DNA of 64,000 bases, taken from assembly GCA_965197745.1 (NCBI GenBank), contig CBDANS010000007.1:1632001-1696000 (forward strand), in the 5' to 3' direction. A model generated the notes under the pieces. It was not told the DNA's origin, did no database searches, and was given only the letters and a program-made list of their open reading frames with translations. A program made the translations under genes and the position numbers. Positions within the stretch are counted from its first letter, which is position 1. Each line of letters starts with the position of its first letter. Of this stretch, positions 35,236 through 58,119 are shown piece after piece. This DNA comes from Opitutales bacterium. Lineage in GTDB: Bacteria > Verrucomicrobiota > Verrucomicrobiia > Opitutales > PNEW01.

Positions 35236-36553
35236 TGGTCGTGACCACGAAAACTGGTCCACTTGAAAAGTTAGTCTGGTCCAACTAGAAAGGACACAGA
35301 CAATGAAAGGCAAAAGATACACGACCGAAGAGAAAATACGGATGCTGCGCCAGGCGGACAAAGGGAAAACGATCCTGGAAGCATGCCGCGAGAACAACAT
35401 AAGCGAACAGACCTTCCACCGCTGGAAACGTGAGTTTGGGATGATTGATGTCAACCAGGCCAAGCGGATGAAGGAGCTCTTTGAAGGAGAACGCGCGGTT
35501 AAAACGGATGCTGGCGGACAAGATGCTGGGGATAGAGATCCTGCAGGAGACCCTCGAAAAAAAACTGTAAGCCCTGGGCACAAGCGGCAAGTGGCAGAGA
35601 GACTTGTGACTCGGGGCCAGTGTTCGATGCGAGCGGGGTGCCGGTACTTTCGGCTGCACCGTTCCACCTATGCGTATAGGGCCAAGCATCCGGATGCCTG
35701 GCTAACGAAACTAAAAGCGGCAGTAAGGCGGTTATCACGGCAATACGCGAGGTGGGGCTATCCCAAGATCACGAAGCTGTTGAAGGACGAAGGCTGGCAG
35801 GTGGGTAAACGTCTCGTGCAACGTCTGCGACGTGAACTGGGTCTGGCGATCCCCCCACGCAAGCCAAGACGCCGGCGCAGGGATGTCTGCACCGGGCTAC
35901 CGACAAAGGCCGAACATCCCGACCATGTTTGGACCTGGGATTTTATCCACGATAAGACGGTTCGCGGCGGCAGTCTAAAAATGCTGACCGTGCTCGATGA
36001 GTACACCCGCGAGTGCCGGGTGATCCATGTTGATCGCCATATCAATGCGGAAACGGTGCGCGGTATCATGCAAAAACTGCTCGACCGGCATGGGCCGCCA
36101 AAATATATTCGTAGCGACAACGGTTCCGTTCCGAGGAGCGAAGCGACGACATGCAAAGCCATTCATTGAAAGCCAATTGAGAGCCTGGCTAACTGCGATG
36201 AAAATCAAAACCCTCTATATCGAACCAGCAAGCCCTTGGCAGAACGGATACATTGAATCGTTCCATGCCCGTTTTCGCGAGGAGTGTTTAAACCGTGAAC
36301 AGTTATGGACTTTGACCGAAGCCCGCGTGGTCATCGAAGATTGGCGCTGGCTTTACAATCATGTCCGACCCCACCGCAGCCTCGGCAACATCACTCCACG
36401 GCACTTCACTGAAAACCTCAATACCGAAGGCTCGGGCTCCATTCGGGCTACGCCCTCATTGCGCCCAAGCCTTGACTTCCTCTACCAACTTAACTTCAAC
36501 ATTAACCTCTCCAGACTAACTCTCCCGGTGGACCAGTTTGTGTAACCCGACCA
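35236..36553 (+). mobile_element. IS3-family element (type A), inactivated
   Basis: IRL TGGTCGTGACCACGAAAACTGGTCCAC / IRR TGGTCGGGTTACACAAACTGGTCCAC; orfA HTH, A-run frameshift site, WTWDF, SDNG, PWQNGYIES; 32-nt insert at 36129. Confidence 0.93.
36129..36160 (+). repeat. Hairpin mini-insert (SDNGS-E-F class, 32 nt)
   Basis: tcc g[ttccgaggagcgaagcgacgacatgcaaagcc]a ttc; near-identical at 41744-41775 and 54724-54755. Confidence 0.9.
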
Positions 36554-37917
36554 GCCTGCTGACCCCAATCGGTATAGCGACAGACAAAACATCGGCCCCT
36601 TTCTTCGCGGAACGGATTCGTGCTTGTTCTGTGAAGGCATTCCTTGCGTTCGAAAACCGGCGGGGATGGCTTTTCCCTGATATTCATCATGAAGAACAGC
36701 CGTCCATAATTGTGTTCACACTGTCCCAGCATCAATTTACTGACTTCGAATTCTGTGTCCGTATCTCGTCATGGGAACAGTTCAACGACTCCAATCGACG
36801 CTTCCGGGTATCCGCGAACCTCTTGAGTGAGGTTAATCGGAATACTGTAACCGTACCGTTGTTCCGTACCATGCGCGACGCTGAACTGACCACAGCGATT
36901 TACAGCCGCCTGCCGGTGTTGGTCGATCGATCATCGGGCGAGGAAGTTAAGGCATGGCCGGTGAAATACTCGACAATGTTCCATATGACCAACGACTCCG
37001 GCCTGTTCCGCACGCGCGAGGAGCTTGAGGAAAAGGAAGGTGCATATCACGTCGGTAGTAACCGCTTTGCCAGTCCGTCCGGAGACTGGGTGCCGCTCTA
37101 TGAAGGCAAGATGATACAGATTTACAATCACCGCTACGCGAGTGTTCGTGTCAATCCCAAAAACATCAGTGGGCAAGGGGTGTCCGAAAAAACGGGGGCT
37201 GCGACACTTCAAGACCCCACATTCGTACCTGATCCGAGGTATTGGGTCAACACGATGCATATTTCAGAAGACGATCGTGAAAGATGGCGAATCGGTTTCA
37301 ATGACGTCTGTAATACGAACAACGCGCGAAGTGTTATTGCGTGCGTTGTTCCACATGCTGGATTCGGTAATACGCTACCGATCCTTTCTCTTGAGGAGAA
37401 GGCACCTGATTTAGATCTTGTTCTGTTGGTTGCGAACCTCTGTGCACTTGTTTTCGATTATGTCGCCAGACAAAAAATCCAATCACGGCACCTGAACAAG
37501 TACATCCTGGAGCAACTCCCGGTCGTCCAGTCCACCCGCTACAAAGCTGTCCACTTTGGAAAGAAGACCACCGCCGAAATTGTCCAAGAGGCCGTTCTTG
37601 AATTGACCTACACCTCTGATGATATGGTCCAATTCGCTCACGATATGGGCTATGTCGATGAGGCGGGTGCAGTAAAACAGCCATTTTCCTGGAATAAAGA
37701 TCGCCGTCTTCACCTACGCGCCAAGCTAGACGCCGTGTTCTTCCATCTTTACGGTGTCACAGACCGCGATGACATCCGCTATATCTATTCAACCTTCCCG
37801 ATCGTTGAACGCAAAGAGAAGGCAACTTATCGTGGCGTGTACCGTTCCTGCGAACTTTGCCTTGCCTATATGAACGCTCTTGCCCATGGAAAACCGGACG
37901 CGGAGGTAAAGCTTTGA
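36554..37917 (+). pseudogene. Type IIG (Eco57I-like) restriction-modification enzyme, C-terminal part only
   Basis: FENRRGWLFPDIH, VPLFR..RDA, MFHMTNDS, PLYEGKMI, FDYVARQK, RAKLDA..FHLYG; 5' end replaced by IS. Confidence 0.8.
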
Positions 37918-38551
37918 CGTAGGACAGGAATATCCGGCTCTGCACTCTCTAATCGGAACTGATGTGTAGTTGGCGTGAGCTCCGAGGATAGGACCGTTGT
38001 CCGTGAGAGTCTTTCCGTAAATAAGAACGGAAAGACAAATGAAACAGAAGAGATGCACCACCGAGGAGATGCTCAACAATCGTGTATGGAGGAAGAGAAT
38101 AGAAATACCGAGTCGCATAACGACGACATCTTCCAATAGTAAGCTCGTGGCATAAGAAAGAAGCGGTAAAGCAAGTGGTAGCACAAGGGGGTTTCTCGCT
38201 GGATCGAGCGTGCTGGTATCTTCGAGCTGCATCGCTGAACTCATCTCTATGAGCACAGGCAGGAATCTTGTTATACTTAGCCCATGGTGAGCGGGTCATA
38301 AGACTTTCAAAGGCACATTTGCATTACGGTTATCGTCGTATTCATGCGCTGTTGAATAAAGAAAAGTGGAAGGCAAGGCGCAAAATCATGCAAAAAGGGT
38401 AAGAGCGTTGAAGGACTTGAGTGTTAAACCCTTTCGTCGCCTTCAGAGACGCCGAGGGCACTTTACTGGGCTTTCTACTAAAGCAGTAAGGCTGAACCAT
38501 GTATGGAGTTGAGATTTAGTTGCGAGCGCAATACATCCGCTCCGATTACGT

Positions 38552-38675
38552 TTACAAATCGGTATATGATATTACGGACAGTGTCAGATTCAAGAGCAGC
38601 TTGTACGTATGTTTCTTCCCTAGCAGAGTTTCGATTTGATCCAGCAGTGTCAATTAGATCAAGTCGCAGCACGTA
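38552..38675 (+). repeat. Dispersed repeat (acagtgtcagattcaagag...gcagtgtc..tagatc.agtcg family), short copy
   Basis: Matches both ends of 57697-57890. Confidence 0.75.
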
Positions 38676-38696
38676 TCAAACGGTTTGTAGCACAAA

Positions 38697-39083
38697 CAGT
38701 GAGAGAAGTACTCCTCAACAAGCGATAGCGAGAATAACAAATGTCCATGGTGCGTCTTTTTATCTTCCACTGCGTAACGTACCAAGGAGCGCAGTGACGA
38801 CATAGCAAAACACTCATGCTTAAATCAAGAATGGTTCCTAAGCGTTACCGAAGGGCGTGTTGTTATTGAAGCGTGGAAGCAAAACTAAAATGCCCAATAT
38901 CCTCATAGTCGTTTAGGCTTCCTCTCTGCCAATGCTTTTGCCAAACTCTGGCACCAACTCGATCCTACAAGTGCTGGCTCCACGAGCCCTACGGCCTATC
39001 TTCGCCAGCATCTCTTAAACCAATTATAGATAACCCATCGAATGGCTCTCACTCAACTTGGGTGTAATTATGAAGTCCAATCA
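38697..39083 (+). mobile_element. Decayed IS3 3' remnant with two mini-inserts
   Basis: LRN[insert 38780-38815]CLNQEWFLSVTEGRVVIE; degenerate insert ~38697-38738; end ...gtccaatca. Confidence 0.75.
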
Positions 39084-39084
39084 T

Positions 39085-39283
39085 TGGTACAAAGGATATG
39101 CGGAAAGCTTCAATAATCATTTAAGAACTGAGTGCCTTGAGCACAAGTTACTATACACCCTGACTGAATCCCACGTGGTAATCGAACAATGGCGTCATAC
39201 CTACAATCATGAACATTCCCACCGTCGTTTAGGCTTTAAAAGCCCACTAACGTTTGTCAGTTTCTTTTCCGATCCTGAAATTA
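39085..39283 (+). mobile_element. IS3 transposase C-terminal fragment
   Basis: GYAESFNNHLRTECL...IEQWRHTYNHEHSHRRLG. Confidence 0.8.
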
Positions 39284-39287
39284 GGTA

Positions 39288-40142
39288 ATGAAAGATGAAT
39301 CAAGAATACTTACTATTGATGTCGCAGACTCAATCTGTGATGCGTCGATTGCATTATCGAACCAGACAACAGATGTTAAAACAGATTCTTGGCATCATAT
39401 TAAAGGTTCGGTTATATATGAAAAAATAGTAATCAGTTATCTGCGTGTTCTGCGATTTATACCCAATAGTAAATACTATAGTCCAATTGGTAAATTCAAA
39501 GTCTGGGACTTTTCATCAACAGCATCGATTACAAGAAGTATTATTGAAGCATACTTCTGTTTGTTTTACATATGCATTGAAAATGTAAGTAATAAAGAAA
39601 AAGAGAAGAGAAAGCTTCTTTGGCTATACCATGAGAAAAATGAGAGACACAAAATGCTTAAGATAGCTTTGCCCAATTCGAAATATGTTGGTAAATTATA
39701 TGATAAAAAAGAACGTCTTAGAAAAAAATTAGTAACCCACACTTGGTTCCTGAAACTTAAACCAGGACGACAAGAAGAACTATTAAAAAAAGATGTAAGC
39801 AAATTGGATGGAAATATAGAGATATGCAAAAAAGCAGGAATCAATCAAAATTATTACCAACCAACCTTTAAGTTTCTATCAAATTTTGCACACACTTCAC
39901 CATTTTCAATTTATCATATAGACTCAAAGTACATTACTGAAAAGAAAGCGAAGTTATTATTCGGCCACATTGCTAACATTGCATCTGGCTTCTCTGTGAT
40001 TGCTCTAGAAGATTACGCTAAGCTCTTTCCAGAGCAATCCCTTGATAACTCAGAGATTAATGAATATATTAATATTTGGAGAGAAATAATGCAGTGGGAG
40101 AAGTCTGAATATTTTGATAAATCTGAGGTTGACTCTAATTGA
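39288..40142 (+). CDS. DUF5677-like (putative HEPN-related) protein
   Basis: Low GC; TRSIIE and FKFLSNFAH motifs. Confidence 0.6.
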   Translation: MKDESRILTIDVADSICDASIALSNQTTDVKTDSWHHIKGSVIYEKIVISYLRVLRFIPNSKYYSPIGKFKVWDFSSTASITRSIIEAYFCLFYICIENVSNKEKEKRKLLWLYHEKNERHKMLKIALPNSKYVGKLYDKKERLRKKLVTHTWFLKLKPGRQEELLKKDVSKLDGNIEICKKAGINQNYYQPTFKFLSNFAHTSPFSIYHIDSKYITEKKAKLLFGHIANIASGFSVIALEDYAKLFPEQSLDNSEINEYINIWREIMQWEKSEYFDKSEVDSN

Positions 40143-40159
40143 TGAGCATGCTTGTCAAT

Positions 40160-40352
40160 GCCTGGCCATAAAGGTATCGTGTTCGCTAAAAGCGAAGACG
40201 TGGTACAAGTCCTAGTCGAAGCTATTGAAGAGTATGGCAGAGCCCAATGCATCCGCTCCGATAATGGTTCGCAGTTCGTAGCACAAAAAGTCACAGAAGC
40301 ATTCCTCAAGAGCCAGATCGACATTATCTCCATCACCCTTGGTAGTCCTCGG
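40160..40352 (+). mobile_element. IS3 transposase central fragment
   Basis: SEDVVQVL..AIEEYG..CIRSDNGSQFVA...GSP; similar to 45080-45240 on the minus strand. Confidence 0.8.
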
Positions 40353-40368
40353 TGGTTATGCCACTTAA

Positions 40369-41217
40369 TTATGCTACTTTAATAAATGTGAGATTCGGAC
40401 CCATATCGTAGTCACACAGTTCGAGGCACCACCCTTCAGAGCTCTGATTATATGGTTCCCTTGCTTTCATTCTTCTCTGAATAAAGGAAATATTATCCTC
40501 AGGTATTTCGTCACAAAAGTAAACGGAGTTGATGCAATTTTCAATCTCGTAAATGTTGATGGTATGTGAATCTTCCATTGAACCTATTTGTATATTTAGT
40601 TTGTAGTAATCTCTATGTACACCAATAAAACAATATTTTGGAGTTATCGGTAGTAATACACCCTTCAGTTCGTTCTTGTTATGCTTTGACCCGAGCCAGA
40701 TTGATGGACAATCTGATGTAAGTAGTAATCCGTCTTCTGAAAATGGAATAATGGCAAAATCCCAATTTTCTTCTATATAGGCTCTAATTTCGCTGTCACT
40801 CGAATTCGATAGTTCACTGCTGATAAGAGATTCCTTGAAGATTTGAATACGTTTAAGGTAGAATTGAAATTCCTCTTCTATCGTATTGAACTTAAATTTG
40901 AAATTTCTTGCATAGAAATCTACAGCACAGAGGAAAAAATGAAACATAGACTTCTTTGATACTACATTACCCCTCAATAAAGATGTCATACATGATCTAT
41001 ATTTACTCTCTGTTACACCAAAATATTTTTCACATAGTTCAGCTCGCTTCTGAGAGTAGAAATAGTCTTTCTGGCATTGATTCCGCACTGGAACGTATTC
41101 AGCAGAATTTAAACCAACTCTCCAGATTCGGCACTTTTTTAGGTCTACACCTGGCGGTATTGCGAACTGCCTTAGGTATATAATTGGCAGGTAATGTTGT
41201 TTCTTGTATTTCGGCAA
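40369..41217 (-). CDS. DUF4238-domain protein
   Basis: N-terminal KKQHYLP..YLRQF, DYFY, LLTSDCP, LPITP. Confidence 0.75.
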   Translation of the reverse strand: MPKYKKQHYLPIIYLRQFAIPPGVDLKKCRIWRVGLNSAEYVPVRNQCQKDYFYSQKRAELCEKYFGVTESKYRSCMTSLLRGNVVSKKSMFHFFLCAVDFYARNFKFKFNTIEEEFQFYLKRIQIFKESLISSELSNSSDSEIRAYIEENWDFAIIPFSEDGLLLTSDCPSIWLGSKHNKNELKGVLLPITPKYCFIGVHRDYYKLNIQIGSMEDSHTINIYEIENCINSVYFCDEIPEDNISFIQRRMKAREPYNQSSEGWCLELCDYDMGPNLTFIKVA

Positions 41218-41279
41218 ATGTATTTGATGTTATACTCCTAATGCGGACTCGCATGTATTAGGTGTGAGATTGATCGGAC

Positions 41280-42707
41280 TGGTTGGACCCCGTATTTCGT
41301 ACCAATTTTTAAGTGAGAGAACTACCGGGTGTTAATGGTATTAGGATTGATGTATATGAGAGATCTTGGCGCAGTGAGGGCGTAGCCCGAACGCGGCCAG
41401 GATCTGAAAGGAATCAGACAAACTCTTGTGGGCTTTGAAAGCCTAATCGACTGTGAGGATGTTCATTGTTATAGGTCTGACGCCATTGTTCGATTAGAAC
41501 TTGCGCTTCAGCCACGCTGAGCAACACTTCAGGGTTCAAACATGAGCGCTTCGCTATGTCGTCACTACGTTCCTCGGTACATCGCGTAAGCGGTTGTGAA
41601 ACGACTCGATGAAACCGTTTGTTATTCTCGCTTTGGCTCGTTGAGGTGTCGCTTCGCTCGGTAGCCAGGGACTGCCTGGTTGGATATAGAGGGTTTTGAT
41701 TTTCATCGCTGTTAGCCAGGCTCTCAATTCCTTTTCAATGAATGGCTTCGCATGTCGTCGCTTCGCTCCTCGGAACACTGCCATTATCACTGTGGATATA
41801 GCTGGGAGCTCCCTCCTTTTCAATGGCCTCGCTAAGCACAGAGAGGACATCGGTTGAGGTGAGCTGTCGAGCTACCCGGATGCGTAAACATTTACGCGTA
41901 TATGTCTTCGCTTCGCTTGAGTGTCGTCGCTTTCAGCTCCTCGGTACATCGATCAAGGTCATCATCTTTAGCATACCGCCATTGTCTGTACGATCATGGA
42001 CAAAGTCCCAGGACCAGACGTGATTGCGACCGGTTGCTTTAGTAGGGAGCCCAGTAGAGATCCCCTGACGGTGTCTACGCTTTTTCGGGGGCTTTACCTG
42101 TAAGCCCGAAGAACGTCGCACTGCCTGTACAAATTTCCTGCTTGCCGCCCAACCTTCCTTCACCAGCAGGGCACGAATGCGCCGGTAACCGTAACGGGGA
42201 TGTTCCCAGGACAAGGTCAAAATCCGCTCGGCCAATTGCTGAGCCTTCTTACTGGCCTGCTTGGGTCGGTAGCTGTACGTTGACCAACTGAGGCTGAGAT
42301 AAGCACAAGCCCTCCGAAACGAGCACAGCCCCTTCTCAGCCGCATCTTTTACTGCTCGCTTCTTCTGCTTTGGGCTCACCATTTTTTTGAGAGCGTTTCC
42401 TCCAACACCCGAAGCTTGAGCATTTGATCAGCGAGCATCTTCTTCAGCTCCGTGTTCTCCTTTTCCAGTTCTTTAAATCGCTTCGCATCAGCCAGCTCCA
42501 AGTTGCCATACTTTTTGCGCCAGCGATAGAAGGTCTGTTCACTTAGGTTGTTGCCGTGGCAGACTTCCTGCACGGTTTTGCCCGTATCGGGCTGCCGGAG
42601 TATTGCTATGATCTGTTCTGTTGTATATCTTTTTCTTTTCATTGAGGTTATCTGTTTATCCCGATAACCTCTCTCTGTTAATGATACCATTTTTTGGGGT
42701 CACTCCA
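41280..42707 (-). mobile_element. IS3-family element (type B1) disrupted by four mini-inserts
   Basis: IRL TGGAGTGACCCCAAAAAATGGTATCA, IRR TGGTTGGACCCCGTATTTCGTACCA; orfA/orfB; inserts 41544-41579, 41621-41663, 41744-41775, 41904-41946. Confidence 0.93.
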
Positions 42708-42901
42708 CAACCATTTCCCACCTTATTGACGTAGCCCATATGCGGGGCAAAGGGGGCCACGTCATGAGACGTGTAGGTCAACTCAAGAACGGACACTAGG
42801 ACAATCTCCCGAGCTCACTTCGAGCCGAAGCGGACAGCCGCGCAGAGTTTCGGCGACAAAACGTGGAGTTGCTCGACGATGAACCAGTTGAGGTGTTGGC
42901 C
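42708..42901 (-). pseudogene. Second fragment of a type IIG RM gene
   Basis: Translates GQHLNWFIVEQLHVL...VRFGSK*AREIV..SVLELTYTSHDVAPFAPHMGYV, paralogous to 37480-37660. Confidence 0.8.
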
Positions 42902-43296
42902 TTCTTAAGTCTTCCCACAAGGGATCACTGTGGAGGGAGCACCAGCACCCCTTTTGTGCGGCGCGCCGCCGCGCCGGGCGAGGAGGGGACACGCGAGCCG
43001 CAGCCTCGCTTCGATTTGTCGCAGCGGACGCGGGCAACTCCTTTTGTCCTGCGTCTTATGTGGCGTTTCGGCGAAGTCCCACACCACAACGGCGGGGGCT
43101 CTGCCCTCTGAGGGAAAAGCGTTGTGGTTGTCGAAATCATGTCCACCCCTCCCCGTCTGAAAGGGGACACCCATCTGACGGCATATGCGTGACCCCCGAA
43201 GACGGAAATCGTCGATCATTCCTGCCCCGGACAAGGCAGCCATGGCGTTCAACAGCGGTCCGGTGACTTCCGTTTTCCTACCCGCTGGGGGCACGT

Positions 43297-43821
43297 TTAG
43301 CCTCCTTGATCTTCTTGGTAATTTGCGAGGGAATCTTCGTACGCTTCGCGCCTCGTGTCCCACGGCACATCTGTGAACCCGTCGATGATGTTGAGGGAAA
43401 GTTGGGCTTCCGCCATGTACCCGCGACGTTCATTCTGGTTCGTCAGGATCAACTGAACCAAGCGAACGCGGTCTGGATAGCGAATCCACCCCTCAACCTC
43501 CCGGCGCAGCCAGTCAAGCCAGAGCCTTGGGGTCTCGTCAAGCGGTTCCTTTCGCATGAACGGCAGCGCCAACTGCCGATAGTCATGCCGGAAGCGCCAG
43601 ACTGCAGCCAAAAGGTCGTGAGCATGCTGCAGTGTTCTGTGATCGAAACTATCAATCCTGCCCCATTCTCGGTGATCGGTATCGTCCAGAACAATTCGGG
43701 CAAACTCCGCGTACAGGTTACATCGCGAAACAATGATCCCTTGTGCTTGTGGATACACGTCGTGTTGTTTCCCGGCCACTTCCATGTCCACGTCACCTTC
43801 AAAAAAGGACCCGACAATCAC
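43297..43821 (-). CDS. Hypothetical protein
   Basis: 174-aa ORF with natural composition; no motif recognised. Confidence 0.55.
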   Translation of the reverse strand: MIVGSFFEGDVDMEVAGKQHDVYPQAQGIIVSRCNLYAEFARIVLDDTDHREWGRIDSFDHRTLQHAHDLLAAVWRFRHDYRQLALPFMRKEPLDETPRLWLDWLRREVEGWIRYPDRVRLVQLILTNQNERRGYMAEAQLSLNIIDGFTDVPWDTRREAYEDSLANYQEDQGG

Positions 43822-43983
43822 TTGGTCTCTCCAGCAAATTTCGGCCGGTGGGTGCTATACCGCAAGCACTGCGACCGCCAATTGCGTTCCGCAATCGCCT
43901 CACCGGCGCGGAAGTGTCGGTCGATTACCATCTCTGCACACCCATATTACACAGTTGTTCGCGCGGCAGCTCTCTGTATAGGC

Positions 43984-44703: not shown

Positions 44704-44726
44704 GCTTGCTCTTCTCCAATCGAGTA

Positions 44727-46087
44727 TGATTAGACCCCATAATTACTACCAAGTTAAGTGAGAGCCATTCCGTGGGTTATCTGTTGTTGGTTTAGCAGAT
44801 GCTGGCGGAGGGAGGCCGGAGGCCGAGTGGAGCCAGCACCTGTTGGATTGAGTTGCTGCCAGAGTTTGGCAAAAGCGTTGGAGAGAGAAAGCCTAAACGA
44901 CTATGAGGGTGATGGGTATTGTATTTTTGCTTCCCCGCATGGATGACAACACGCGCTTCGGTAACGCTTAGAAACCACTCTTGGTTTAAGCATGAGTGCT
45001 TCGCTATGTCGTCACTACGTTCCTCGGTACGTCACGCAGTCGATTGTGAAAGGATTCAACATGGCCGTTCTGCCAAGGACTGCCAGGGTCGATGTAGATA
45101 ATGTCGATCTGGCGCTTGAGGAGTGCTTCTCTGACTTTTTGTGCTACGAACTCCGAACCGTTATCGGAGCGGATGCATTGGGGTCTGCCATACTCTTCAA
45201 TAGCTTCGACTAAGACCTTGCACCACGTCTTCGCTTTTGAGCGAACGAGATACCTTTATGGCCAGGCATTGACGGGTATACTGATCGACACGGTGAGAAT
45301 GCGGAAAGGGCGGCCGTTGACCAGCCGATCGCTCATAAAGTCCATCGACCAGCGTTCCTGGGCAGCTGAAGCCGCGGGCAGTGAGACCCGCCTTTGCGCG
45401 GCACGCTTCTTACGTTTCTTCGTGCGCACTTCCAGCCCTTCGGCCTTGTAGATCCGATAGACGCGTTTCTTTCCTACCGACCAGCCCTCCCGCTTTAATA
45501 ACACCGTGATTCGCCTATACCCGTAGCGCACACGCGCGGCGGCGAGGTCTCGTATGCGCACAATCAGCGCGCGTTCGTCCCTCATCACCGGCTGATAGTT
45601 ATAACTCGACCAATACAACTGCATCAGCCTGTACGCCCGGCGTTTGCTAACTTCATAAGCTTCCACTAACCACTCAGCAATCACCTTCTTGCCCACTGGC
45701 TTTACAACTTTTTTGAGATAACTTCCTGCACCATGTGCTTGTCCAGGCTCAGATCAGCGACCAGCTTCTTCAAACTGGCGTTCTCTTCGTCGAGTTGCTT
45801 CAGCCGTCTTAATTCACTGATTCCCATGCCCGTGTATTTACCCTTCCAACGGTGGTAGGTCTGTTCGCTCACCCCTAACTCCCGGCACCCTTCGGCGATC
45901 CTTCGACCACCTTCTACCTGCCTTAGGGCATAGATGATTTGTTCTTTATTATAGCGTTTGTCAGGCCTTCTCGGCTGCGCCTCGTTTTCCTTTGCTTTTC
46001 ATGGATCGTTCTTTCTCCTATTTTTATTAGCTTTTCTACCCACGCCAGACTAAATCTTTCCTGGTCCAGTTTTACGGGGACAGGTCA
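44727..46087 (-). mobile_element. IS3-family element (type C), decayed and probably mosaic
   Basis: Ends TGACCTGTCCCCGTAAAACTGGACCA / TGATTAGACCCC; RYGYRR, WSMDF, SDNGSEF, PWQNGHVES; mini-insert 44994-45029. Confidence 0.85.
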
Positions 46088-46089
46088 AT

Positions 46090-48761: not shown

Positions 48762-50255
48762 TGATATGCTCCCATTTACTAGACCAAGCTCAGTGTTAGG
48801 ATTTGCTGGTTGGAGGGGGGCGGTTATCAGTTTGCATATGGCTTGCTGGGCGTATTCGGCCGGAGGTCGCCGGAGGCCGATAGCCCAGCGAGCTGCGTAG
48901 TCTTTGAGTATTATAATCGAGGCGGTATGGTGTAAGCTTTTCCCGTGCCTCAGTCAGGGAAAAGAAGATCTCTGGGTTAAGGAGTTCGTCGCGTAGCTTG
49001 CCATTGAAGAACTCAATGTAAGCGTTCTCTGGTCGGTCTACCTGAGAACTCGGGCCCGCTATCGACGGTGATGGCCTTGGGTAAACCACCGGTGTTTACC
49101 GATGCTCTCTCCAGCACCTCGATGACTTTGCCGGCGTCGATGGACTGATCGGCGTAGAGCACCGGGCAGAGCGGTCATAGCGATCCACTACTGTAAGCAC
49201 CCGGAAACACCGCCCATCCGCCAACTTACCCTCCATGAAGTCCATGCTCCTGTGTTGGCGTGAGGCTCGGGCTTGAGCCAACTGCACCTGTGGCAGGGAA
49301 GCCCACTTCTTACGTTTTTGGATGCGCACTTCCAGCCCCCTCGGCCTTGTAGGTGACGTAGACACGCTTTGTGGCCCACCCGGCCAGCATCTCGCTTTAG
49401 CAAACACTGTCGGACGCCGATAACCGTAACGCATGCGCAATGCTGCCAGATCGCCGATACGCACGGACAGAGCTCGATCGTCCGGTTTTGGCTTGGGCCA
49501 ACACATAAAGCTTGACCCGTTAAGTTGCAGCAGCCTGAACCCGCAACGGTAGCTGATCTCGAAGACCTCAGCGGCCTTACCCACCAGCTGCACCTTGCGT
49601 ACAGGCTTCAGAGCTATATTGAGACGATCTCCTGCAGGATATGTTTGTCCAGGTTCAGGTCGACCACCAGCTTACGTAAGCTGTTGTTCTCGTCTTCCGG
49701 CTTCTTCAACCGGGGTAGCTCGCTTACGCCTATGCCGCATACTGCTTCTTCCAGCGGTAGTAGGTCTGCTCCGAGACTCCTGGCTCGCGACACACATCGG
49801 CGATCCTGCGACCGCTGTCTGCTTGCCGCAAAGCGTAGATGATTTGTTCTTCTTTATAGTCTTTATAGCGTTTACCTTTGCTTTTCATAATGGACCGGGT
49901 TCCATTCTATGAACCCCGATCCAACCCAATGGGATCAACCTGCATACCCGGCGTTTGCTTACCTCATAAGCTTCCATTATCCACTTAGCTATCGACTTTT
50001 TGCGCAAAGGATTAATTTGCTGATTCCTAAACCTGTATATTTACACTTCCAACGGGGGTAAAGGCCTTGTTCGCACAACTCGGACCTTCGGTATCCCTTC
50101 GTCCGCCTTCTGCCTGCTTTATGAAATAGATCATTTGCTCTTTATGATAACGCATGCCTTTTCTACTGATGGGTGGTTTTTATCCTGTCTTTTATCAGGT
50201 TTTCCTCCCATGAAAGACTAAATCTTTGCTCGTCCAGTTTAATGGGGTCAGGTCA
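48762..50255 (-). mobile_element. Heavily decayed IS3-family DNA (two orfA remnants, frameshifted orfB)
   Basis: RYGYRR, SMDF, ENAYIEFFNGKLRDELLN; end ...ggggtcaggtca. Confidence 0.8.
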
Positions 50256-50290
50256 CAGTCCCTCTATTTTATTAAGCTTACTTAACTGAT

Positions 50291-50700
50291 TCATCCCCGA
50301 GGGACTATTCGCCAGAAACGATCTGCTTCCTCAGTAGTTACCAGGTCGAGATAGTAATTACGGATCACGGATTCAGAGTTGCTTGCCTGAGGTGCAGCGT
50401 CTCCTACCGAGCGGAAGGACCCCACCGTCATCGAAATATAGGTATGCCGTAGGGCATTAGGTGGAGTTTGCGCTATTTACGGACATTAGCCTACATGTCG
50501 CGGAATCTCCTTGTTGGTATGGTGAGGTAGCTGCCAGGAGGATACTTCTCCAACCAGAGGCTACGGGTGGGCTGGATTTTAACGGATCGCTTATCCTTTA
50601 CTTTGGAGACATCCGGTTCGATAAGGATAACCCCGCTATCCCTATGGATGTGTTTAGGTTTGAGTTTGCTCATTTTACCGTGTTTCCAGTCAAGTCTGTA
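50291..50700 (-). pseudogene. Tyrosine integrase C-terminal remnant
   Basis: Translates ...IEPDVSKVKDKRSVKIQP... and NALRHTYISMTVGSFRSVGDAAPQASNSESVIRNYYLDL..FWRIVP*. Confidence 0.8.
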
Positions 50701-50835
50701 AACAAAGTTTTTCTTAATCTACTTCATAGGGAAATCTGGAGGTGCCATTACAGGTTCTGGTGCGATTAAACTTGTCTCCACCGGGCGCATAAATTTATTG
50801 TTTTGCCTCACAAGGGTCTGTTAATCGAGATTATT

Positions 50836-51032
50836 AAATTCACTCAAAAATTATTGACCGATTCCTGGCTGAACCTTACCAAAAAAGTATTCCTGCCCAT
50901 TCCTGCCAAACATTTTGAGGCAAGGTCAGGAAATTAGAGGAAAATATAAATTATTATTGTGCCGTTATTTAAGTATAACTAATTGTTAATAAGCAGTTTA
51001 TAAGGCATTATTGAGTCCCGTTCATAGTCGGT
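50836..51032. repeat. ~200-bp att-like repeat, copy 1
   Basis: ATTCCTGCC tandem, AT-rich core, ends ttattgagtcccgttcatagtcggt; near copies at 57400 and 60836. Confidence 0.9.
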
Positions 51033-51366
51033 TTCATCGAGTCGTTTCACAACCGCTTACGCGATGTACCGAGGAACGTAGTGACGACATAGCGAAGCGC
51101 TCATGTTTGAACCCTGAAGTGTTGCTCAGCGTGGCTGAAGCGCAAGTTCTAATCGAACAATGGCGTCAGACCTATAACAATGAACATCCCCACCGTCGAT
51201 CAGGCTTTCAAAGCCCACAAGAGTTTGTCACATTCCTTTCAGATCTTGGCCGCGTTCGGGCTACGCCCTCACTTCGCCAAGATCTCTCATATACATCAAT
51301 CCTAAAACCATTAACACCCGGTAGCTCTCTCACTTAATAATTGGTACGAAAAACGGGGTCCAATCA
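51033..51366 (+). mobile_element. IS3 type B 3' half starting at FIESF, with mini-insert 51067-51102
   Basis: Near-identical to reverse complement of 41280-41615; ends ggggtccaatca. Confidence 0.9.
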
Positions 51367-51559
51367 GTTTTTTAGAATATAAATTTAAAAAAGCGGTAAG
51401 GATCAGCTGAAGCTCAGCCACTGCTGAGCTATTGCGATTAAGCACCGTGTTTCACCTAACTTATATCCTATGTATACTCTGCGCTCTCTGCGTCTCCGCG
51501 GGAAAACATTTGCTGAACTGAATGTTGTATATTTAGATGTAACCCTATTAATCTAAGGC

Positions 51560-53158
51560 ATGATGGATCAACCGTTTCGACTGATATGGGAGGCTGAATG
51601 GAACGACATCGCGTGCGTGGATTACCCGCTAACGCCGGAGCAATGGCTGGGCGAATGCATACGCCCGCTAGAGGGGACGCAGGTAGACTGCCTGCTCTAC
51701 AACCTGTGCTCGTCGGACGCATACTGCTGTGACCTGGAGAGCGGCGAGATCCTGGGCGATGAGTTCGAGCAATTCCCGGATGCATGGGTTTGGCGCTATC
51801 GAGAGAATACCAAGAAGCTGATCGAGGCGAACGCGAACCCGCCAAAGCTTGCGTGTGAGTACGGGCGCCGCATGGGATTGAAGCTGATACCGGTCGTTCG
51901 CATGAATGATCCACACGACCAGGCTTACAAGTACGAGGTCAGCCGGTTCAAAATGGCCAACCTGCATCTGCTCTTGGGTTACACCGGACCGGATTGGCAG
52001 CCGCCTTGGGGGACTTGGTGGCGAGCGCACCCCAATCCCGAGAGTATGGACGCCACCAATTGGGGACTGTTTGATTTTGCGCACAAAGAGGTCCGCGACC
52101 ACAAAATGGCCATCATCGAGGAGTTCATCACCCGATGGGACAACGACGGCATCGCGCTTGATTTCGAACGCGATCCTCGCTACTTCAAAGAGTTCGGCAA
52201 GGCGGAAAACGCCGTGCTTATCACGGACATAGTGCGGCAAACGCGCGAGCTTCTGGACCGCGTGAGCTGCGAACGTAGTCGACCCATGTACCTGCATGTG
52301 CGTGTCGTGGCGGATATCGACACGTGCTGGCAACGAGGACTGGACGTGCACACGTGGGTGAAAGAGGGATTGGTCGACGTCGTTGTGCCTGGCGCCGGAT
52401 ACATGTTATTCGATATGGACCTTGGTCCGTGGTTGGAACTGGTCGAAGGGCATGACTGCTGGATATTCCCCTGCGTGAACCACTGGAGAAAGACGGAAGT
52501 GACCCGCGCCTGGGCCAAGTTGATGTATCAACGGGGAGCGCATGGGCTGCAACTGTTCAACTTCGGGCACTTGCTCTACGGACACGGTATAGATACGCCA
52601 CCGCAATCCGAACGGACAGGGACGGTCTGGTACGACGATCTGCACCCGGAGTATTACCGTGTGCTGCACGAGATCCACGATCCGGGCGTGATTGCCTTTC
52701 TCAACTGCGATTACGATCTCGATTCACATCCGCGCGCACCAAACCAGGGAGCTCATTCGGGACAGAACCACAGGACCTACCGGGGTATCGACGCGATCGT
52801 GCTCCCTGTGGAGCTGTCGGTTGGGTCACACGTCATCCCGTTCGGGATTGCCGATGATCTGGAAGCGGCGCGGCAACGGGCGCTGTCGCCGAGAGTCACC
52901 TTGCACTTGCAGGTACACAACTTCACGCGGCCCGATGAGTATAAGGTCTCAGTTAACGGAAGCTTATTGCCGGGAGATGCTCGGAGCACTCGGGCGCAGT
53001 TTATCATGGACAATTTTACCCGAATGACTTATCTCCTGCCGCCCGATGTCTTGAGGCTCGGTCAGAATGAATTGAAGATCGAAGTGGAACGCCTCAACCC
53101 GGCAATTTGCGTGACTCCGCGGCTGGATCACGTCGAGATTCTCGTGCAATATGCCTGA
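51560..53158 (+). CDS. Glycoside-hydrolase-like TIM-barrel protein (GHL10/DUF187-like)
   Basis: VRMNDPH, FDFAHKEVRD, DGIALDFER, TWVKEGLVD; higher GC than the core genes. Confidence 0.7.
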   Translation: MMDQPFRLIWEAEWNDIACVDYPLTPEQWLGECIRPLEGTQVDCLLYNLCSSDAYCCDLESGEILGDEFEQFPDAWVWRYRENTKKLIEANANPPKLACEYGRRMGLKLIPVVRMNDPHDQAYKYEVSRFKMANLHLLLGYTGPDWQPPWGTWWRAHPNPESMDATNWGLFDFAHKEVRDHKMAIIEEFITRWDNDGIALDFERDPRYFKEFGKAENAVLITDIVRQTRELLDRVSCERSRPMYLHVRVVADIDTCWQRGLDVHTWVKEGLVDVVVPGAGYMLFDMDLGPWLELVEGHDCWIFPCVNHWRKTEVTRAWAKLMYQRGAHGLQLFNFGHLLYGHGIDTPPQSERTGTVWYDDLHPEYYRVLHEIHDPGVIAFLNCDYDLDSHPRAPNQGAHSGQNHRTYRGIDAIVLPVELSVGSHVIPFGIADDLEAARQRALSPRVTLHLQVHNFTRPDEYKVSVNGSLLPGDARSTRAQFIMDNFTRMTYLLPPDVLRLGQNELKIEVERLNPAICVTPRLDHVEILVQYA

Positions 53159-53263
53159 GCGCACCCGTTTAGTGTGCTACATGCACAATTCAGAACAGAT
53201 CAGAATATTACTTCCGCGCTCTGGGTGTCAATCAGGCCGTCTCAATTGCGGATTGATTCCATT

Positions 53264-53418
53264 TGTCATCGCGAAGGAAGCGTAGCTGACTGTGGCTACC
53301 GAGCGTGAAACGCGACATCTTCTATTCCAGGGGGCTGTCAATACGTGACCGACATCCTCCTGGAGTGGAAGATGTCGCTGAGCTCGGTAGCTTCGTCGCA
53401 TTGCTCCTCGCAATGACA
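53264..53418. repeat. Palindromic REP/RPE-like element (TGTCAT.GCGA...TCGCAATGACA), both arms carrying mini-inserts
   Basis: Terminal inverted arms; inserts 53297-53316 (+) and 53374-53389 (-). Confidence 0.85.
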
Positions 53419-53466
53419 AGAGGATAATTACGAAGATAAGGATTATATTCGATAACCGTTAGACAC

Positions 53467-53550
53467 AATCCGTAATCCGTACCGAGAGCTAAGCGCGACA
53501 TCCCTCATTCCGCATTCCGTACCGAGGGCGAAGACCGACATCCATAATCG
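53467..53550 (+). repeat. 7-bp (ATCCGNA/TTCCGCA) tandem tract with two 20-nt mini-inserts
   Basis: Inserts taccgagagctaagcgcgac 53480-53499 and taccgagggcgaagaccgac 53520-53539. Confidence 0.8.
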
Positions 53551-53552
53551 TC

Positions 53553-54259
53553 TCACTCGATCGTTACCTCATCGACAGCAATGGTGATCTCATCACCCTC
53601 TTCATTAACGAAGGTTGCATTGATATTTTGAGTCGGTTGAGGAGTGTTGTCAGATTTAAAATTGTTCTGCGTAATCAAGGTATCAAATTCTCGCGTCGTC
53701 GATCCGCTCTCCGCGACTACGATCGAAGCTCCATTTGTCTGTGCCAGGTCTCCTCCAGTGATCCGCAACCCGGGGTTGCTGGCCGGCACCGTGAAGGAAC
53801 CTTCTCCAAACAGCAAATGTGGTACTGCATCGTCACTGGCATCGATGTCACCTACGGTTAAGCGTACTGCTATCGGTACTCCGCGTGCATCGACGCCTAC
53901 TTTGCCGGTGTCTCCACTGAAGACAGTATTCGACAACTGAATCCCTCCCATCCCCGTGGAGTTGATCACTTCCACCAAGGTGACGTCGGCTTGCGCGTCA
54001 TAAACCTGTCCCTCGGGGAAGAGCGCCTGGTTCACCGCGTTGATCGATCCCACCGTAAAGATACTGAAGAAGGTACTGGAGTCAGCTCCATCGATGACTA
54101 CGCTCGGCTTACCGGTCACGTACTCGACGGCCTGGTTGTAGCGTAGGGGTGGAGCCGGAGGCAGGAAGGTGGCCGGGTCCAAGATTACAGTAAAGGTCCC
54201 TGCGCCCGAGAACTCTACCTGCACAATGTCCTCATTTTCGTCCATGAAGGAGACCCGTG
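53553..54259 (-). pseudogene. C-terminal domain of a large secreted protein, 5'-truncated by IS
   Basis: TRVSFMDENEDIVQVEFSGAG... closely paralogous to 63345-64000; cut by the IS end at 54260. Confidence 0.85.
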
Positions 54260-55687
54260 TGATCGGACCCCGTTATTCGTACCAATTATTAAGTGAGAGA
54301 GTTACCGGGTGTTAATGGTTTTAGGATTGATGTATATGAGAGATCCTGGCGCAGTGAGGGCGTAGCCCGAACGCGGCCAGGATCGGAAAGGAATCTGACA
54401 AACTCTTGTGGGCTTTTAAAGCCTAAACGACTGTGGGGATGTTCATTGTTATAGGTCTGACGCCATTGTTCGATTAGAACTTGCGCTTCAGCCACGCTGA
54501 GCAACACATCAGGGTTCAAACATGAGCGCTTCGCTATGTCGTCACTACGTTCCTCGGTACATCGCGTAAGCGGTTGTGAAACGACTCGATGAAACCGTTT
54601 GTTATTCTCGCTTTGGCTCGTTGAGGTGTCGCTTCGCTCGGTAGCCAGGGACTACCCGGATCGATATATATCGCCTTGATGTTTTTTTCACGCAACCACC
54701 GCTGTACTTGATGAGCGATAAATGGCTTCGCATGTCGTCGCTTTGCTCCTCGGAACACTGCCATTATCACTGCGGATATAGCTGGGAGCTCCCTCCTTTT
54801 CAATGGCCTCGCTAAGCACAGAGAGGACATCCGATGAGGTGAGTTGACGAGCTACCCGGATATCCAGACATTCACGCGTATATGGCTTCGCTTCGCTTGA
54901 GTGTCGTCGCTTTCAGCTCCTCGGTACATCGATCAGAGTCATCATCTTTAATGGACCGCCATTGTCTGTGCGATCATGGACAAAGTCCCAGGACCAAAGG
55001 TGATTGCGACCGGTTGCTTTAGGAGGCGACCCTGTAGAGACTCCTTGACGGTGTCTGCGCTTTTTTGGTGGCTTTACCTGTAAGCCCGAAGAACGTCGCA
55101 CTGCCTGTACAAATTTCCTGCTCGCCGCCCAGCCTTCCTTCACCAGCAAGGCACGGATGCGCCGGTAACCGTAGCGGGGATGTTCCCAGGACAGGGTTAC
55201 AATCCGCTCGGCCAACCGCTGAGCTTTCTTACTGGTCTGCCTGGGCCGGTAGCTGTACGTTGACCAACTGAGGCTGAGATAAGCACAAGCCCTCTAAAAC
55301 GAGCACAGCCCTCTCTCAGCCGCATCTTTTACTGCTCGCTTCTTCTGCTTGGGGCTCACCATTTTTTTGAGAGCGTTTCCTCCAACACCCGAAGCTTGAG
55401 CATTTGATCAGCGAGCATCTTCTTCAGCTCCGTATTCTCCTTTTCCAGCTCTTTAAATCGCTTCGCATCAGCCAGCTCCAAGGTGCCATACTTTTTGCCC
55501 CAGCGATAGAAGGTCTGTTCACTTAGGTTGTTGCCGCGGCAGACTTCCTGCACGGTTTTGCCCGTATCGGGCTGCCGGAGTATTGCTATGATCTGTTCTG
55601 TTGTATATCCTTTTCTTTTCATTGAGGTTATCGGGTTATCCCCATAACCTCTCTCTGTTAATGATACCATTTTTGGGGGTCACTCCA
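54260..55687 (-). mobile_element. IS3-family element (type B2) disrupted by the same four mini-inserts
   Basis: Paralog of B1; inserts 54524-54559, 54601-54643, 54724-54755, 54884-54926. Confidence 0.93.
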
Positions 55688-55689
55688 TT

Positions 55690-56229
55690 TTGCCTCGGGA
55701 GTTCATCGAAACGTTTATCGAGGCCTCCTCAAAGTATGCGGAAGTCACCGACGAATTAAACAACTTCATCGATCGGCTCAACCAGGTAAAATCAGCTGAG
55801 ACCGATAACCTGACTGAGGTCGAGATTGATTCCATGTTTTATTTTGACCCGAAATTTGTGGACGAGGTGGACGAGGCAGGACTCGAACTGAAAAAGCTAT
55901 ATCTAAAAGAATTTGCAGTAGATATGCACTACCAATCGACCAATGTTTTCTGGATTGGAGAAGGGACTGAAAAAGAACTTTATCCTGAAGGAGATGATAC
56001 AAAACCTGTCTTTGGGGGAAACGCGATCTATTACAGAAGTAAGGACAATTTACCTTCATGGATTCCAGACGATAAAGTAAATCTTGAGTTGCCTCCCCCA
56101 TCGAATTTTAATCCCCGTTTGCATACCGACCCGGATACAGAACCCTTTATCTGGGTTCCTGCTGGAACATGGGGATTCTTTTGTATTGATCGACAATGGA
56201 AGATAGCGATCATCCGTTCTGGAACATAA
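55690..56229 (+). CDS. Acidic hypothetical protein, probably 5'-truncated by IS
   Basis: ORF begins 2 nt after the IS end at a TTG. Confidence 0.5.
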   Translation: MPREFIETFIEASSKYAEVTDELNNFIDRLNQVKSAETDNLTEVEIDSMFYFDPKFVDEVDEAGLELKKLYLKEFAVDMHYQSTNVFWIGEGTEKELYPEGDDTKPVFGGNAIYYRSKDNLPSWIPDDKVNLELPPPSNFNPRLHTDPDTEPFIWVPAGTWGFFCIDRQWKIAIIRSGT

Positions 56230-56438
56230 TTCGATCGACTGGGATGAAACAGTTTAGCCGAGTAAACGAGCGAAGACAGCCATTGGCAAAGGAAGAGAAG
56301 TCAAAGGATGATGGGATTAATCATGCCTAATCCTCGTGCTTCAGTATTGAGTCGGCATTCCCCAACCTTACAAAGTACATCCGTCATTTTGAATGGTTGA
56401 CACTGTCGCAATTTCCAGTCACCTCGACACTTGAATAG

Positions 56439-56470
56439 TGATCGGACCCCATTATTCGCACCAGTTTAAG
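56439..56470 (-). mobile_element. Orphan IS3 type B right end
   Basis: TGATCGGACCCCATTATTCGCACCAGTT resembles the end at 54260. Confidence 0.65.
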
Positions 56471-56673
56471 TAAGGGAGCAAGGGAAATCAAAGATGGCCT
56501 AAGCACATTGTCGACCTGTTACCGGATTCGTTCGAGGAGTCGGAGTAATGACTGAGCTGAACTAAGTGAAGCACCAACCCATAACCCTCAAAGTCATTAC
56601 GATTTACGAACTGCCTTTCGACTGCGCCAGCCAGAGACAACGAATAACTCCATGGTGATGTACCCACGAGCCG

Positions 56674-57138
56674 TTACCGGGCGGGGGCATCCACAGCCAA
56701 ATCGGTGGTGATGAGGGCGAAAATGCCCTCTATATCGCGCGCCGGGACAGAGCGGGTGATCATCCAAATCTCACCGCCACCCGCATCAAAGTAAGGGGCT
56801 GTCCAGACGCCCGTATTCGCTGCCAATGGCGCTGTAACCCAGACCTGAGTCTCAATGTTGTAGGTGGGTGTGGCGAGGTCGTGGGTGGCGTAGCCGTCGG
56901 CGGTGCGATAGACATAGGGGCAAGTGGTGACCACACCAGCATGATCGAGCAGCGCAGCGGCACTGCCGTGGAACGCGGGGTTGGCCTCCAAGTAGGCCCG
57001 TAAGCGCTCCGTATACGCGGCTGGATTGGCTGGTCGTTCCACCTCCAACTCTGCCACCAAGGTGTCGAGGGCGGCAACCACCGCAGTCTTCAAGCCCTCC
57101 TGAGTGGGCGCGCTAGGACTACAGCCTTGGGCAGTCAA
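56674..57138 (-). CDS. Stand-alone dCache/PDC sensor-like protein (start uncertain)
   Basis: PYVYR..; W...P....GVWTAPYFDAGGGEIWMITRSVP. Confidence 0.75.
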   Translation of the reverse strand: MTAQGCSPSAPTQEGLKTAVVAALDTLVAELEVERPANPAAYTERLRAYLEANPAFHGSAAALLDHAGVVTTCPYVYRTADGYATHDLATPTYNIETQVWVTAPLAANTGVWTAPYFDAGGGEIWMITRSVPARDIEGIFALITTDLAVDAPAR

Positions 57139-57261
57139 GAAGGTAAGCAGCAGCAGAGACAGGGCCGCTGCTCGAACATGAGGTGATGGGTTTGGAACCT
57201 AGGGGCGATGTATTGCCATGGAGCGTAAACGAGACGGGTTGGTTTAGGGACTGATATACAC

Positions 57262-57386
57262 AACTGTACTTGTTGCCTTGTTGCAACTTGATCTAACAGA
57301 CACTGTTTTATCAAATCGCAACTCTTCCAGAGAATAACATTGATTGTTTTCTTCTCAACTTCCAATCAAATAATAAGTTATCGTCG
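57262..57386 (-). repeat. Dispersed repeat, inverted copy of 57772-57890
   Basis: gatctaacagacactg...aaatcgcaactcttccagagaataacattgattgttttcttctcaacttcc is the near reverse complement. Confidence 0.85.
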
Positions 57387-57399
57387 TGGAGTGCCCCAA

Positions 57400-57588
57400 A
57401 AATCCACTCGAAAATTCTTGGCCGATTCCTGGTCGAATATCATCAAAAAATATGATTCCTGCCAAACATTTAGAGGCAAGGTCAGGAAGTTAGAGGAAAA
57501 TATAAATTATTATTGAATCGTTATTTACGTGTAACTAATTGTTATTAAGCAGCTTAAAAATCATTATTGAGTCCCGTTCATAGTCGGT
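57400..57588. repeat. ~200-bp att-like repeat, copy 2
   Basis: Same sequence as copy 1; preceded by an IS left-end stub TGGAGTGCCCCAAAAA. Confidence 0.9.
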
Positions 57589-58119
57589 ACATCGAGTCGT
57601 TCCACAACCTCTCACCCGATGTACCTAGGAACGTAGTGACGACATAGCGAAGCGCTCATGTTTGAACCGTGAAGTGTGCTCAGTGTGGCTGAAGTGTACA
57701 AAACGGTATTTGATATTAGGGACAGTGTCAGATTCAAGAGCCGCTTGTACGAATATTTTCTTCTCAACTTCTGACGATAACTTTTTGGTTGATCGGAAGT
57801 TGAGAAGAAAACAATCAATGTTATTCTCTGGAAGAGTTGCGATTTGATCAAGCAGTGTCTGATAGATCTAGTCGTAACAAGTACAGCCTGAAGCTCAAGG
57901 GGTAATCGAACCATGCCGTCATACCTACAACCATGAACATTCCCACAGTCGTTTAGTCTTTAAAAGCTCGCAAGAGTTTGTCAGTTTCCTCTCCGACCTT
58001 GGCCACGTTCGGGCTGCGCCCTCACTTCGCCAGGATCTCTCATATACATCACTCCTTAAACCATTAACACCCCGTAACTCTCTCTCTTAATAATTGATTC
58101 GAATAACGGGGTCCAATCA
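57589..58119 (+). mobile_element. IS3 type B 3' half (mini-insert 57622-57657), interrupted by a dispersed repeat at ~57697-57890
   Basis: atcgagtcgttccacaacc...; ends ggggtccaatca. Confidence 0.8.

Follow-up and report, generated by a model that had tools for sequence, protein, structure and literature searches.

Small hairpin-bearing DNA modules that replace one base at fixed codons of IS3-family genes in an Opitutales genome

The small dispersed repeats (SDRs) of Nostoc punctiforme and its relatives, SDR1-8, were reportedly described by Elhai et al. in 2008 as very small non-coding repeats, some of them with inverted repeats, and are said to lie within other repeats, miniature inverted-repeat transposable elements (MITEs) and tandem heptamers. 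We know of no enzyme that mobilises them. The IS200/IS605 insertion sequences (ISs) are single-strand 'peel and paste' elements with hairpin ends and no target duplication, and homing introns and inteins occupy the most conserved codons of conserved enzymes, with the same element at the same site in divergent hosts. The 'byp' inserts of Magnusiomyces mitochondria, T4 gene 60 and the Rickettsia palindromic elements represent short, hairpin-prone sequences in coding genes that are bypassed or translated in frame. According to one report, SDR5 inserts precisely between the third and fourth nucleotide of the highly iterated palindrome 1 (HIP1) octamer (PMC4390886), and another describes SDRs in Nostocaceae only (PMC5861425). 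Repetitive extragenic palindromic (REP) sequences and their doublets (REPINs) are linked with REP-associated tyrosine transposases (RAYTs; Y1 HUH; Bertels and Rainey 2011, PMC3116915). Here, we analysed a 64,000-nt window (the whole stretch of DNA studied; positions 1632001-1696000 of contig C7) of an Opitutales genome (G000; 4.45 Mb, 7 contigs, 45% G+C, 92% complete), in which hairpin-bearing inserts interrupt the orfB genes of IS3-family elements. The observation, made in a preliminary description of the window, that these inserts replace one base at fixed IS3 codons was confirmed. On balance, we lean towards the inserts being members of a family of non-coding, non-autonomous and very small mobile DNA modules, served by a trans-acting enzyme and spread by copying and hitch-hiking.

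Occupancy across G000 was scored by chaining tblastn matches of four insert-free protein segments, which gave 85 junctions for site 1, 81 for site 2 and 81 for sites 3 and 4. The cognate codon of orfB was filled at 32/85 junctions for site 1 (LID-E-Y), 68/81 for site 2 (SDNGS-E-F), 13/81 for site 3 (PW-Q-NG) and 11/81 for site 4 (LRD-E-C). Counted as one A replaced, the inserts at sites 1-4 measured 43, 32, 43 and 36 nt. Those at sites 2 and 4 shift the reading frame (net +31 and +35 nt), the site-1 insert carries an in-frame TGA and the site-3 insert is an open addition of 14 codons. Among 75 full-length cores, the fill patterns were site 2 alone (31), sites 1 and 2 (25), all four sites (5), no site (5), sites 2 and 3 (3), sites 3 and 4 (3), sites 2 and 4 (1), sites 1 to 3 (1) and site 4 alone (1).

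A filled codon at the G000 junctions invariably read as its first base, the insert and an A. The corresponding empty codons were GAG (39) or GAA (11) at site 1, GAG (8), GAA (2), CAG (2) or TAG (1) at site 2, and CAA or CAG at site 3. The earlier claim that one A in place of the insert restores the expected sequence held exactly in three filled/empty pairs with otherwise identical flanks (sites 1, 2 and 3), but most empty alleles were GAG and not GAA. The site-1 pair came from a second genome, G060, in which an uninterrupted locus (L058) and a filled locus (L033) were the same over ~1470 nt apart from one A exchanged for 43 nt and one single-nucleotide polymorphism. Exact single-A pairs were also found for site 2 (ggcagtg-A-attcat) and site 3 (tggc-A-aaacgg). 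In cluster 18, comprising 14 copies of a 1.34-kb IS, 3 copies were empty and differed from 9 near-identical filled copies in the insert and two substitutions immediately 3' of it (empty, G AG TTT; filled, G-insert-A TTC), which is what would be given by a short templated patch from a GAATTC-type donor. The lack of a target duplication matched the first description; the target had instead lost one to three bases. A generic module at locus L057 replaced AAC one codon past site 3 and is an independent insertion event.

The insert-bearing orfB genes and fragments of the window lay at 35236-36553(+), ~38289-38939(+), 41420-42301(-), 44879-45624(-), 51067-51226(+), 54400-55281(-) and 57622-57979(+). 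Using the four inserts as blastn-short queries, all 14 IS-borne copies reported beforehand were recovered, including degenerate or mismatched ones at 38697, 38780 and 57622. Non-IS copies were confirmed at 38106, 53297, 53374(-), 53480 and 53520. The regular expression T[AT]CCGAG.{3,30}CGAC gave 17 matches in the window (6 on the + strand, 11 on the - strand). One of these, 59202-59220(-), lies within a 691-aa open reading frame (ORF) and is without the tail typical of the family; it probably matches by chance rather than being a module. The features of the window are as follows.

35236-36553, + strand: IS3-family copy (superclade I, cluster 18) with ends TGGTCGTGACCACG...AACCCGACCA
36129-36160, + strand: site-2 insert, 32 nt, at the E codon of SDNGS-E-F (blastn-short and regular expression)
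38106-38135, + strand: generic module TACCGAG-hairpin-CGAC(GAC)ATCTTCCAA, not at any of the four orfB sites
38697-38738, + strand: degenerate site-3 insert in a decayed IS3 fragment (88% over 26 nt)
38780-38815, + strand: degenerate site-4 insert in the same decayed fragment (89% over 27 nt)
41420-42301, - strand: orfB core of a chimeric IS3 copy, all four sites filled
41544-41579, - strand: site-4 insert, 36 nt, LRD-E-C
41621-41663, - strand: site-3 insert, 43 nt, PW-Q-NG, in frame and stop-free
41744-41775, - strand: site-2 insert, 32 nt
41904-41946, - strand: site-1 insert, 43 nt, LID-E-Y, in frame and containing TGA
44879-45624, - strand: orfB core of a divergent IS3 copy, site 4 alone filled
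44994-45029, - strand: site-4 insert
51067-51102, + strand: site-4 insert in an IS3 fragment
53270-53420, no strand assigned: palindromic REPIN-like element with one module per arm (53297-53316 on the + strand, 53374-53389 on the - strand)
53480-53539, + strand: two generic modules (53480-53499 and 53520-53539) in a heptamer-like array (attccgc/aatccg)
54400-55281, - strand: orfB core of an IS3 copy (superclade II), all four sites filled
54524-54559, - strand: site-4 insert
54601-54643, - strand: site-3 insert
54724-54755, - strand: site-2 insert
54884-54926, - strand: site-1 insert
57622-57657, + strand: site-4 insert with one mismatch, in an IS3 fragment

The IS copies formed two superclades with ~44% DNA divergence, and the same 32-nt insert was found in both, in agreement with the earlier statement that each site has a dedicated insert reused across divergent IS types. 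Divergence of the site-2 insert was 0.020, versus 0.341 for 120 flanking nt (1822 between-cluster pairs from 66 copies). Because the bases immediately 5' of the same insert differed by superclade (ggttccg versus ggcagtg), a homology-driven tract cannot have moved the insert between them. On an IS tree of 73 cores, built with insert columns masked and excluding two cores that carried large nested insertions, the minimum number of state changes was 6, 6, 5 and 6 for sites 1-4. Occupancy also varied between genomes, since all type-A copies in G000 (23/23) were filled at sites 1 and 2, and the 27 type-A copies sampled from G060 had an insert at site 1 and none at site 2. Three superclade-I copies in G000 were uninterrupted, with frames of 354-415 aa through the catalytic (DDE) core, and no type-A copy was. 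All 14 copies of cluster 3 shared a premature TAG in orfB (LCSF*RACAYL) together with two inserts, at different loci (e.g. C6:174700-176400, - strand) and with a mean divergence of 0.009; defective copies have therefore multiplied.

Several chimeric IS copies had joints exactly at inserts, and the inserts therefore act as portable identity islands. The window copy at 41420-42301(-) was such a mosaic: its segment between sites 2 and 3 belonged to superclade I and the parts on either side to superclade II, as though a stretch bounded by two inserts had been exchanged. Homing by gene conversion, one of the routes initially put forward, thus gained support from the co-converted 3' substitutions of cluster 18, the chimeras at inserts and at least 5-6 state changes per insert.

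The inserts belong to a wider set of modules of ~20-45 nt. Their core consists of T(A/T)CCGAG, a hairpin with a stem of 2-7 bp and usually a 3-4-nt loop, and CGAC, followed by a tail, for example ATCTTCCA(T) or ACCTCAACGA-second hairpin-GAGAATAAC. The 5' junction was clean and one target purine was lost, so that N-R-A(T) became N-module-A(T), where R is a purine. The two module ends (TACCGAG... and ...CA) were not inverted repeats of each other. Genome-wide, G000 contained 302 matches to the regular expression, with 63, 30, 17, 12 and 11 copies of the five commonest exact cores, and a strict search for TACCGA, hairpin and GAC gave 118 matches versus 27 in the reversed genome. An outer stem of at least 2 pairs was present in 63% of 134 flank-defined matches, and one of at least 4 pairs in 25%, compared to 9% and 0.4% for shuffled interiors. 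This excess (63% versus 9%) indicates that the hairpin sequence varies and that its pairing is kept. This looser, flank-defined pattern also matched a coding motif without a hairpin in a paralogous protein family, and those matches were set aside. The motif, TACCGA-23 nt-GACATC, mimics the module flanks and was observed at ~17 places (e.g. C4:26490, C5:167684, C7:59252) in paralogous frames of ~650-775 codons, which probably encode a family of secreted proteins.

Outside IS genes, modules occurred in palindromic doublets with arms of the form ...ggc TACCGAG-hairpin-CGAC atcttccattccagg..., in tandem heptamer arrays and in a 'gatagccac...caaaggcac' repeat. Empty counterparts were also found outside IS3, where ggc-GA or AA-tccagg corresponded to ggc-module-tccagg, and gcttac-CG-tttttttt to gcttac-module+CA-tttttttt. 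As far as tested, the absence of inserts from core genes was upheld, since hairpin-bearing modules in long open frames fell in IS3 genes, save four in frames of 98-187 codons. Another IS3 type carried a 20-25-nt module in antisense orientation directly 3' of its A-run frameshift site (C1:9388, C6:553716, C6:1392779, C7:1061679, C7:1466990). A module in this position could change frameshifting as well as the reading frame.

We further investigated the occurrence of the modules by scanning 201 Opitutales genomes, as had been proposed, with the pattern TACCGAG N3-16 CGACATC. The reversed pattern served as a control and gave 0 matches in G000 and 0-3 in all genomes searched. Module counts were as follows.

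G000 (this genome; family f1, genus g1): 86 modules
G032 (family f1, genus g2): 127 modules
G060 (family f1, genus g2; 94% complete): 137 modules
G038 (family f38): 142 modules
G087 (family f38): 64 modules
G012 (family f13): 41 modules
G057 (family f26): 21 modules
A few further genomes: 8-14 modules each
All remaining genomes: 0-5 modules, most 0-3

Within genus g39, module counts were 142, 64, 11, 10 and 2. The module family spans several Opitutales families and also occupies non-IS repeats. The flanks TACCGAG and CGACATC were kept across these families, with changes in the hairpin letters and preservation of the stem. Hairpins were lineage-specific (GTTGAAAAC in G012, GCGAA[CT]GC in G038), as were the host repeats, and a two-hairpin module of the site-3 type was present in G038 in another context. 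Matches to the IS3 family studied here numbered 2 in G038, 0 in G012 and 0 in G057, despite their 142, 41 and 21 modules. Because these module-rich genomes nearly lack the family, the IS3 transposase is a victim of the modules and not their driver. In contig C1 of G038, modules were also arranged head-to-tail with 24-25 nt spacing (587411-587479, 2829616-2829659, 2982836-2982879), and four modules lay ~135 nt apart within a longer tandem repeat (2052715-2053147).

Writing by a reverse transcriptase or an HUH enzyme, an option raised in the preliminary description, was not borne out. Reverse transcriptase (PF00078) gave 0 matches in G000 and G060, and a reverse transcriptase-templated element resembling retrons or diversity-generating retroelements was rejected on this basis. 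Free-standing template or guide copies had also been anticipated, and none was found outside IS3 for the site 1, 2 or 4 inserts in G000. The single PF01797 (Y1/HUH) gene of G000 (C6:163380-163706; locus L013, C6:161880-165206) consisted of a 198-aa frame followed by a separate 171-aa frame, compared to ~330 aa in relatives, and looks split. No module occurred within 3 kb of it, and the nearest strict match, 19 kb away, looks like chance. A second frame near this gene had a similar C-terminal helix-turn-helix-like segment. PF01797 matches were found in 5/5 module-rich genomes tested and Y1 matches are common in Opitutales, but with Y1 subfamilies pooled their number did not appear to track module counts (13 matches and 2 modules in G107). 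Strand bias between replichores was absent, with + and - copies mixed along single replichores of C6 and C7. The ends of IS200 elements were considered as a module source and rejected, those of the abundant IS200 of G057 being unrelated to the module. This 7.2-Mb genome carried ~70 near-identical IS200-type copies (loci L024-L027) encoding a 156-aa TnpA, with two TACCGAG modules 200-300 nt outside copies.

Removal at the RNA level was assessed using contigs, not raw reads, of two RNA-library and two DNA runs compared with window positions 40900-43200; such contigs can hide rare forms, and DNA carry-over into RNA libraries is possible. RNA-library contigs of run X20 retained the inserts at sites 3 and 2 (record 18) and at site 1 (record 20). 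The only joint that skipped an insert was at site 4, read GAG and was also present in both DNA runs, at depths of 640 and 500. Since the RNA contigs keep the inserts and the skipped form exists as DNA, neither splicing nor the previously suggested precise removal restoring an A is supported. Samples from several studies contain DNA of both site-4 alleles. Rfam gave 0 matches in the window at the gathering score, and minimum-free-energy folds of insert plus flanks, as DNA or RNA, had no fold in common.

Of the two options initially offered, a small site-specific parasite fits best, given the order-wide module family and its presence in non-IS repeats; the reverse transcriptase or HUH enzymology is not supported. 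If the inserts are indeed mobile modules, four variants would have become fixed at four conserved GAR or CAR codons of IS3-family orfB. Their spread would take two routes, one being copying from filled to empty cognate sites (by homing-like conversion of short patches and by recombination at the inserts) and the other carriage on defective IS copies that are mobilised in trans. The mobilising enzyme would itself act in trans and be distinct from the IS3 transposase, and the outcome would be that most IS3 copies are knocked out. A more specific version, in which a purine is excised by trans-acting machinery and a templated hairpin cassette of 20-45 nt is put in its place, with non-coding, site-dedicated cassettes homing to IS3 catalytic-core codons in families 44% apart, is a possibility that we regard as doubtful. 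Several results weigh against mobile modules. In G000, every copy of the site 1, 2 and 4 inserts lies within an IS3 gene, and de novo insertion of these into unrelated DNA was not seen. Neither a mobilising enzyme nor an autonomous partner nor a transposition intermediate was found, and when ORFs within 400 nt of 95 modules were clustered, the recurrent ones were only IS3 pieces and the paralogous secreted-protein family. Cluster 18 displayed all four allele combinations between unlinked polymorphisms; gene conversion among IS copies is thus active anyway, so that no dedicated homing activity is required for spread within a family. Recombination instead of new insertion could likewise account for the 5-6 changes per site. 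Finally, the target 'rule' was derived from a few filled/empty pairs, and at the less sharply defined 3' junction 1-3 nt are replaced or overlap.

A rival proposal is that nothing is currently mobile, such that four old indels, each of single origin in IS3, were spread by ordinary recombination or conversion and IS transposition, the motif deriving from a REP-like repeat. Recombination among IS copies is evident, the 32-43-nt identity islands could seed it, and defective copies have multiplied. We nevertheless consider this unlikely, given that the immediate 5' bases differ between superclades (ggttccg versus ggcagtg), that modules with other hairpins occupy many unrelated contexts for which empty counterparts exist and extend to distant Opitutales families, and that a generic module next to site 3, one codon away, inserted independently. 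A 'writing' defence encoded by the host, installing templated, site-specific cassettes at conserved IS3 codons with modules elsewhere as by-products or templates, would account for the position of all four sites in the conserved DDE core, a separate cassette per site that is reused in IS clades 44% apart, the high proportion of IS copies struck (68/81 at site 2) and the co-converted 3' flank. It appears quite improbable given that no reverse transcriptase was found in G000 or G060 and no free-standing template of the site 1, 2 or 4 cassettes, and in view of the unlinked and seemingly split Y1/HUH gene, the abundance of modules where the IS3 family is nearly absent and the many modules in plain intergenic repeats.

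Alternatively, the inserts might serve the IS itself as tiny introns, translationally bypassed gaps or switches, their removal allowing transposase production to continue. IS families with inserts in every copy have still multiplied (23/23 type-A copies filled at sites 1 and 2), and the insert is far more conserved than its flanks. Such a role is very unlikely, as RNA-library contigs retained the inserts at sites 1, 2 and 3, the only skipping form (site 4, GAG) was also in both DNA runs, the inserts shift the frame by +31 and +35 nt or bring an in-frame TGA at site 1, matching take-off and landing codons were not seen, cluster 3 carries a plain nonsense codon besides, and Rfam gave no match. 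The prospect of an assembly or sequencing artefact, for which nothing was found, is negligible and was ruled against by the same inserts in two other public assemblies, in G060 and in contigs of runs from several studies, and by the presence of both site-4 alleles.

Should the modules be mobile, as we lean towards, they would be among the smallest mobile DNAs known, and would extend, as an unrelated second example, the unexplained phenomenon of very small mobile repeats beyond the one cyanobacterial family to which it has been tied. Were the cassette-homing version true, no smaller homing elements would be known, and the modules would in effect act as hyperparasites or as a natural 'vaccination' that silences insertion sequences. 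The inserts illustrate how transposase genes can be inactivated on a large scale in symbiont-type genomes, and how recombination between IS elements with no other relationship is made possible by identity islands of 32-43 nt. Filled and empty alleles in ISs that are identical elsewhere, a one-base rule, conserved flanks with a free hairpin and patchy abundance within one order offer clean material for work on mechanism. Both mobile-DNA biologists and builders of genome-writing tools would take an interest in an enzyme capable of exchanging a single base for a defined cassette with no duplication.

In comparison to known systems, a MITE of a DDE transposon was rejected, there being no terminal inverted repeats and no target-site duplication. 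The modules resemble REPINs in that short palindromic units form inverted doublets with long hairpins (window 53270-53420), in being non-autonomous and in the presence of a PF01797 gene in the genome. However, the Y1 gene has no modules beside it, pooled Y1 counts do not appear to track those of modules, and modules also occur singly, in tandem (24-25 nt spacing) and at fixed codons of IS genes. Like the left and right ends of IS200/IS605 elements, the IS-borne inserts have two hairpins, and they lack a target duplication; unlike these elements, they have no constant 4-5 nt 5' target (left flanks GATG, TCCG, AGTG, TCGG, TGGC, CGGC, CCAC and TTAC) and no replichore bias, one target base is lost, and the IS200 ends of G057 are unrelated. 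With homing introns and inteins they share insertion at conserved codons, the same site in divergent hosts and co-conversion of adjacent sequence, but at 32-43 nt they hold no ribozyme or ORF, give no sign of RNA removal and inactivate the host gene. The byp inserts, T4 gene 60 and the Rickettsia elements are similarly short, hairpin-prone mobile inserts inside protein-coding genes, whereas here two of four shift the frame, one has a stop, and the targets are selfish genes rather than host genes.

Literature searches, mostly at the level of listings, returned no description of small dispersed repeats outside cyanobacteria and none for Opitutales. Compared by description and not by sequence, the modules of these Verrucomicrobiota differ from SDRs in their own sequence, in losing one target purine, and in having site-dedicated two-hairpin variants at four IS3 codons, conserved flanks and a free hairpin sequence. 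They are like SDRs in being very small dispersed repeats inserted precisely into other repeats, with empty counterparts found in IS genes, palindromic repeats and heptamer arrays. The SDRs of Nostoc are the nearest known phenomenon.

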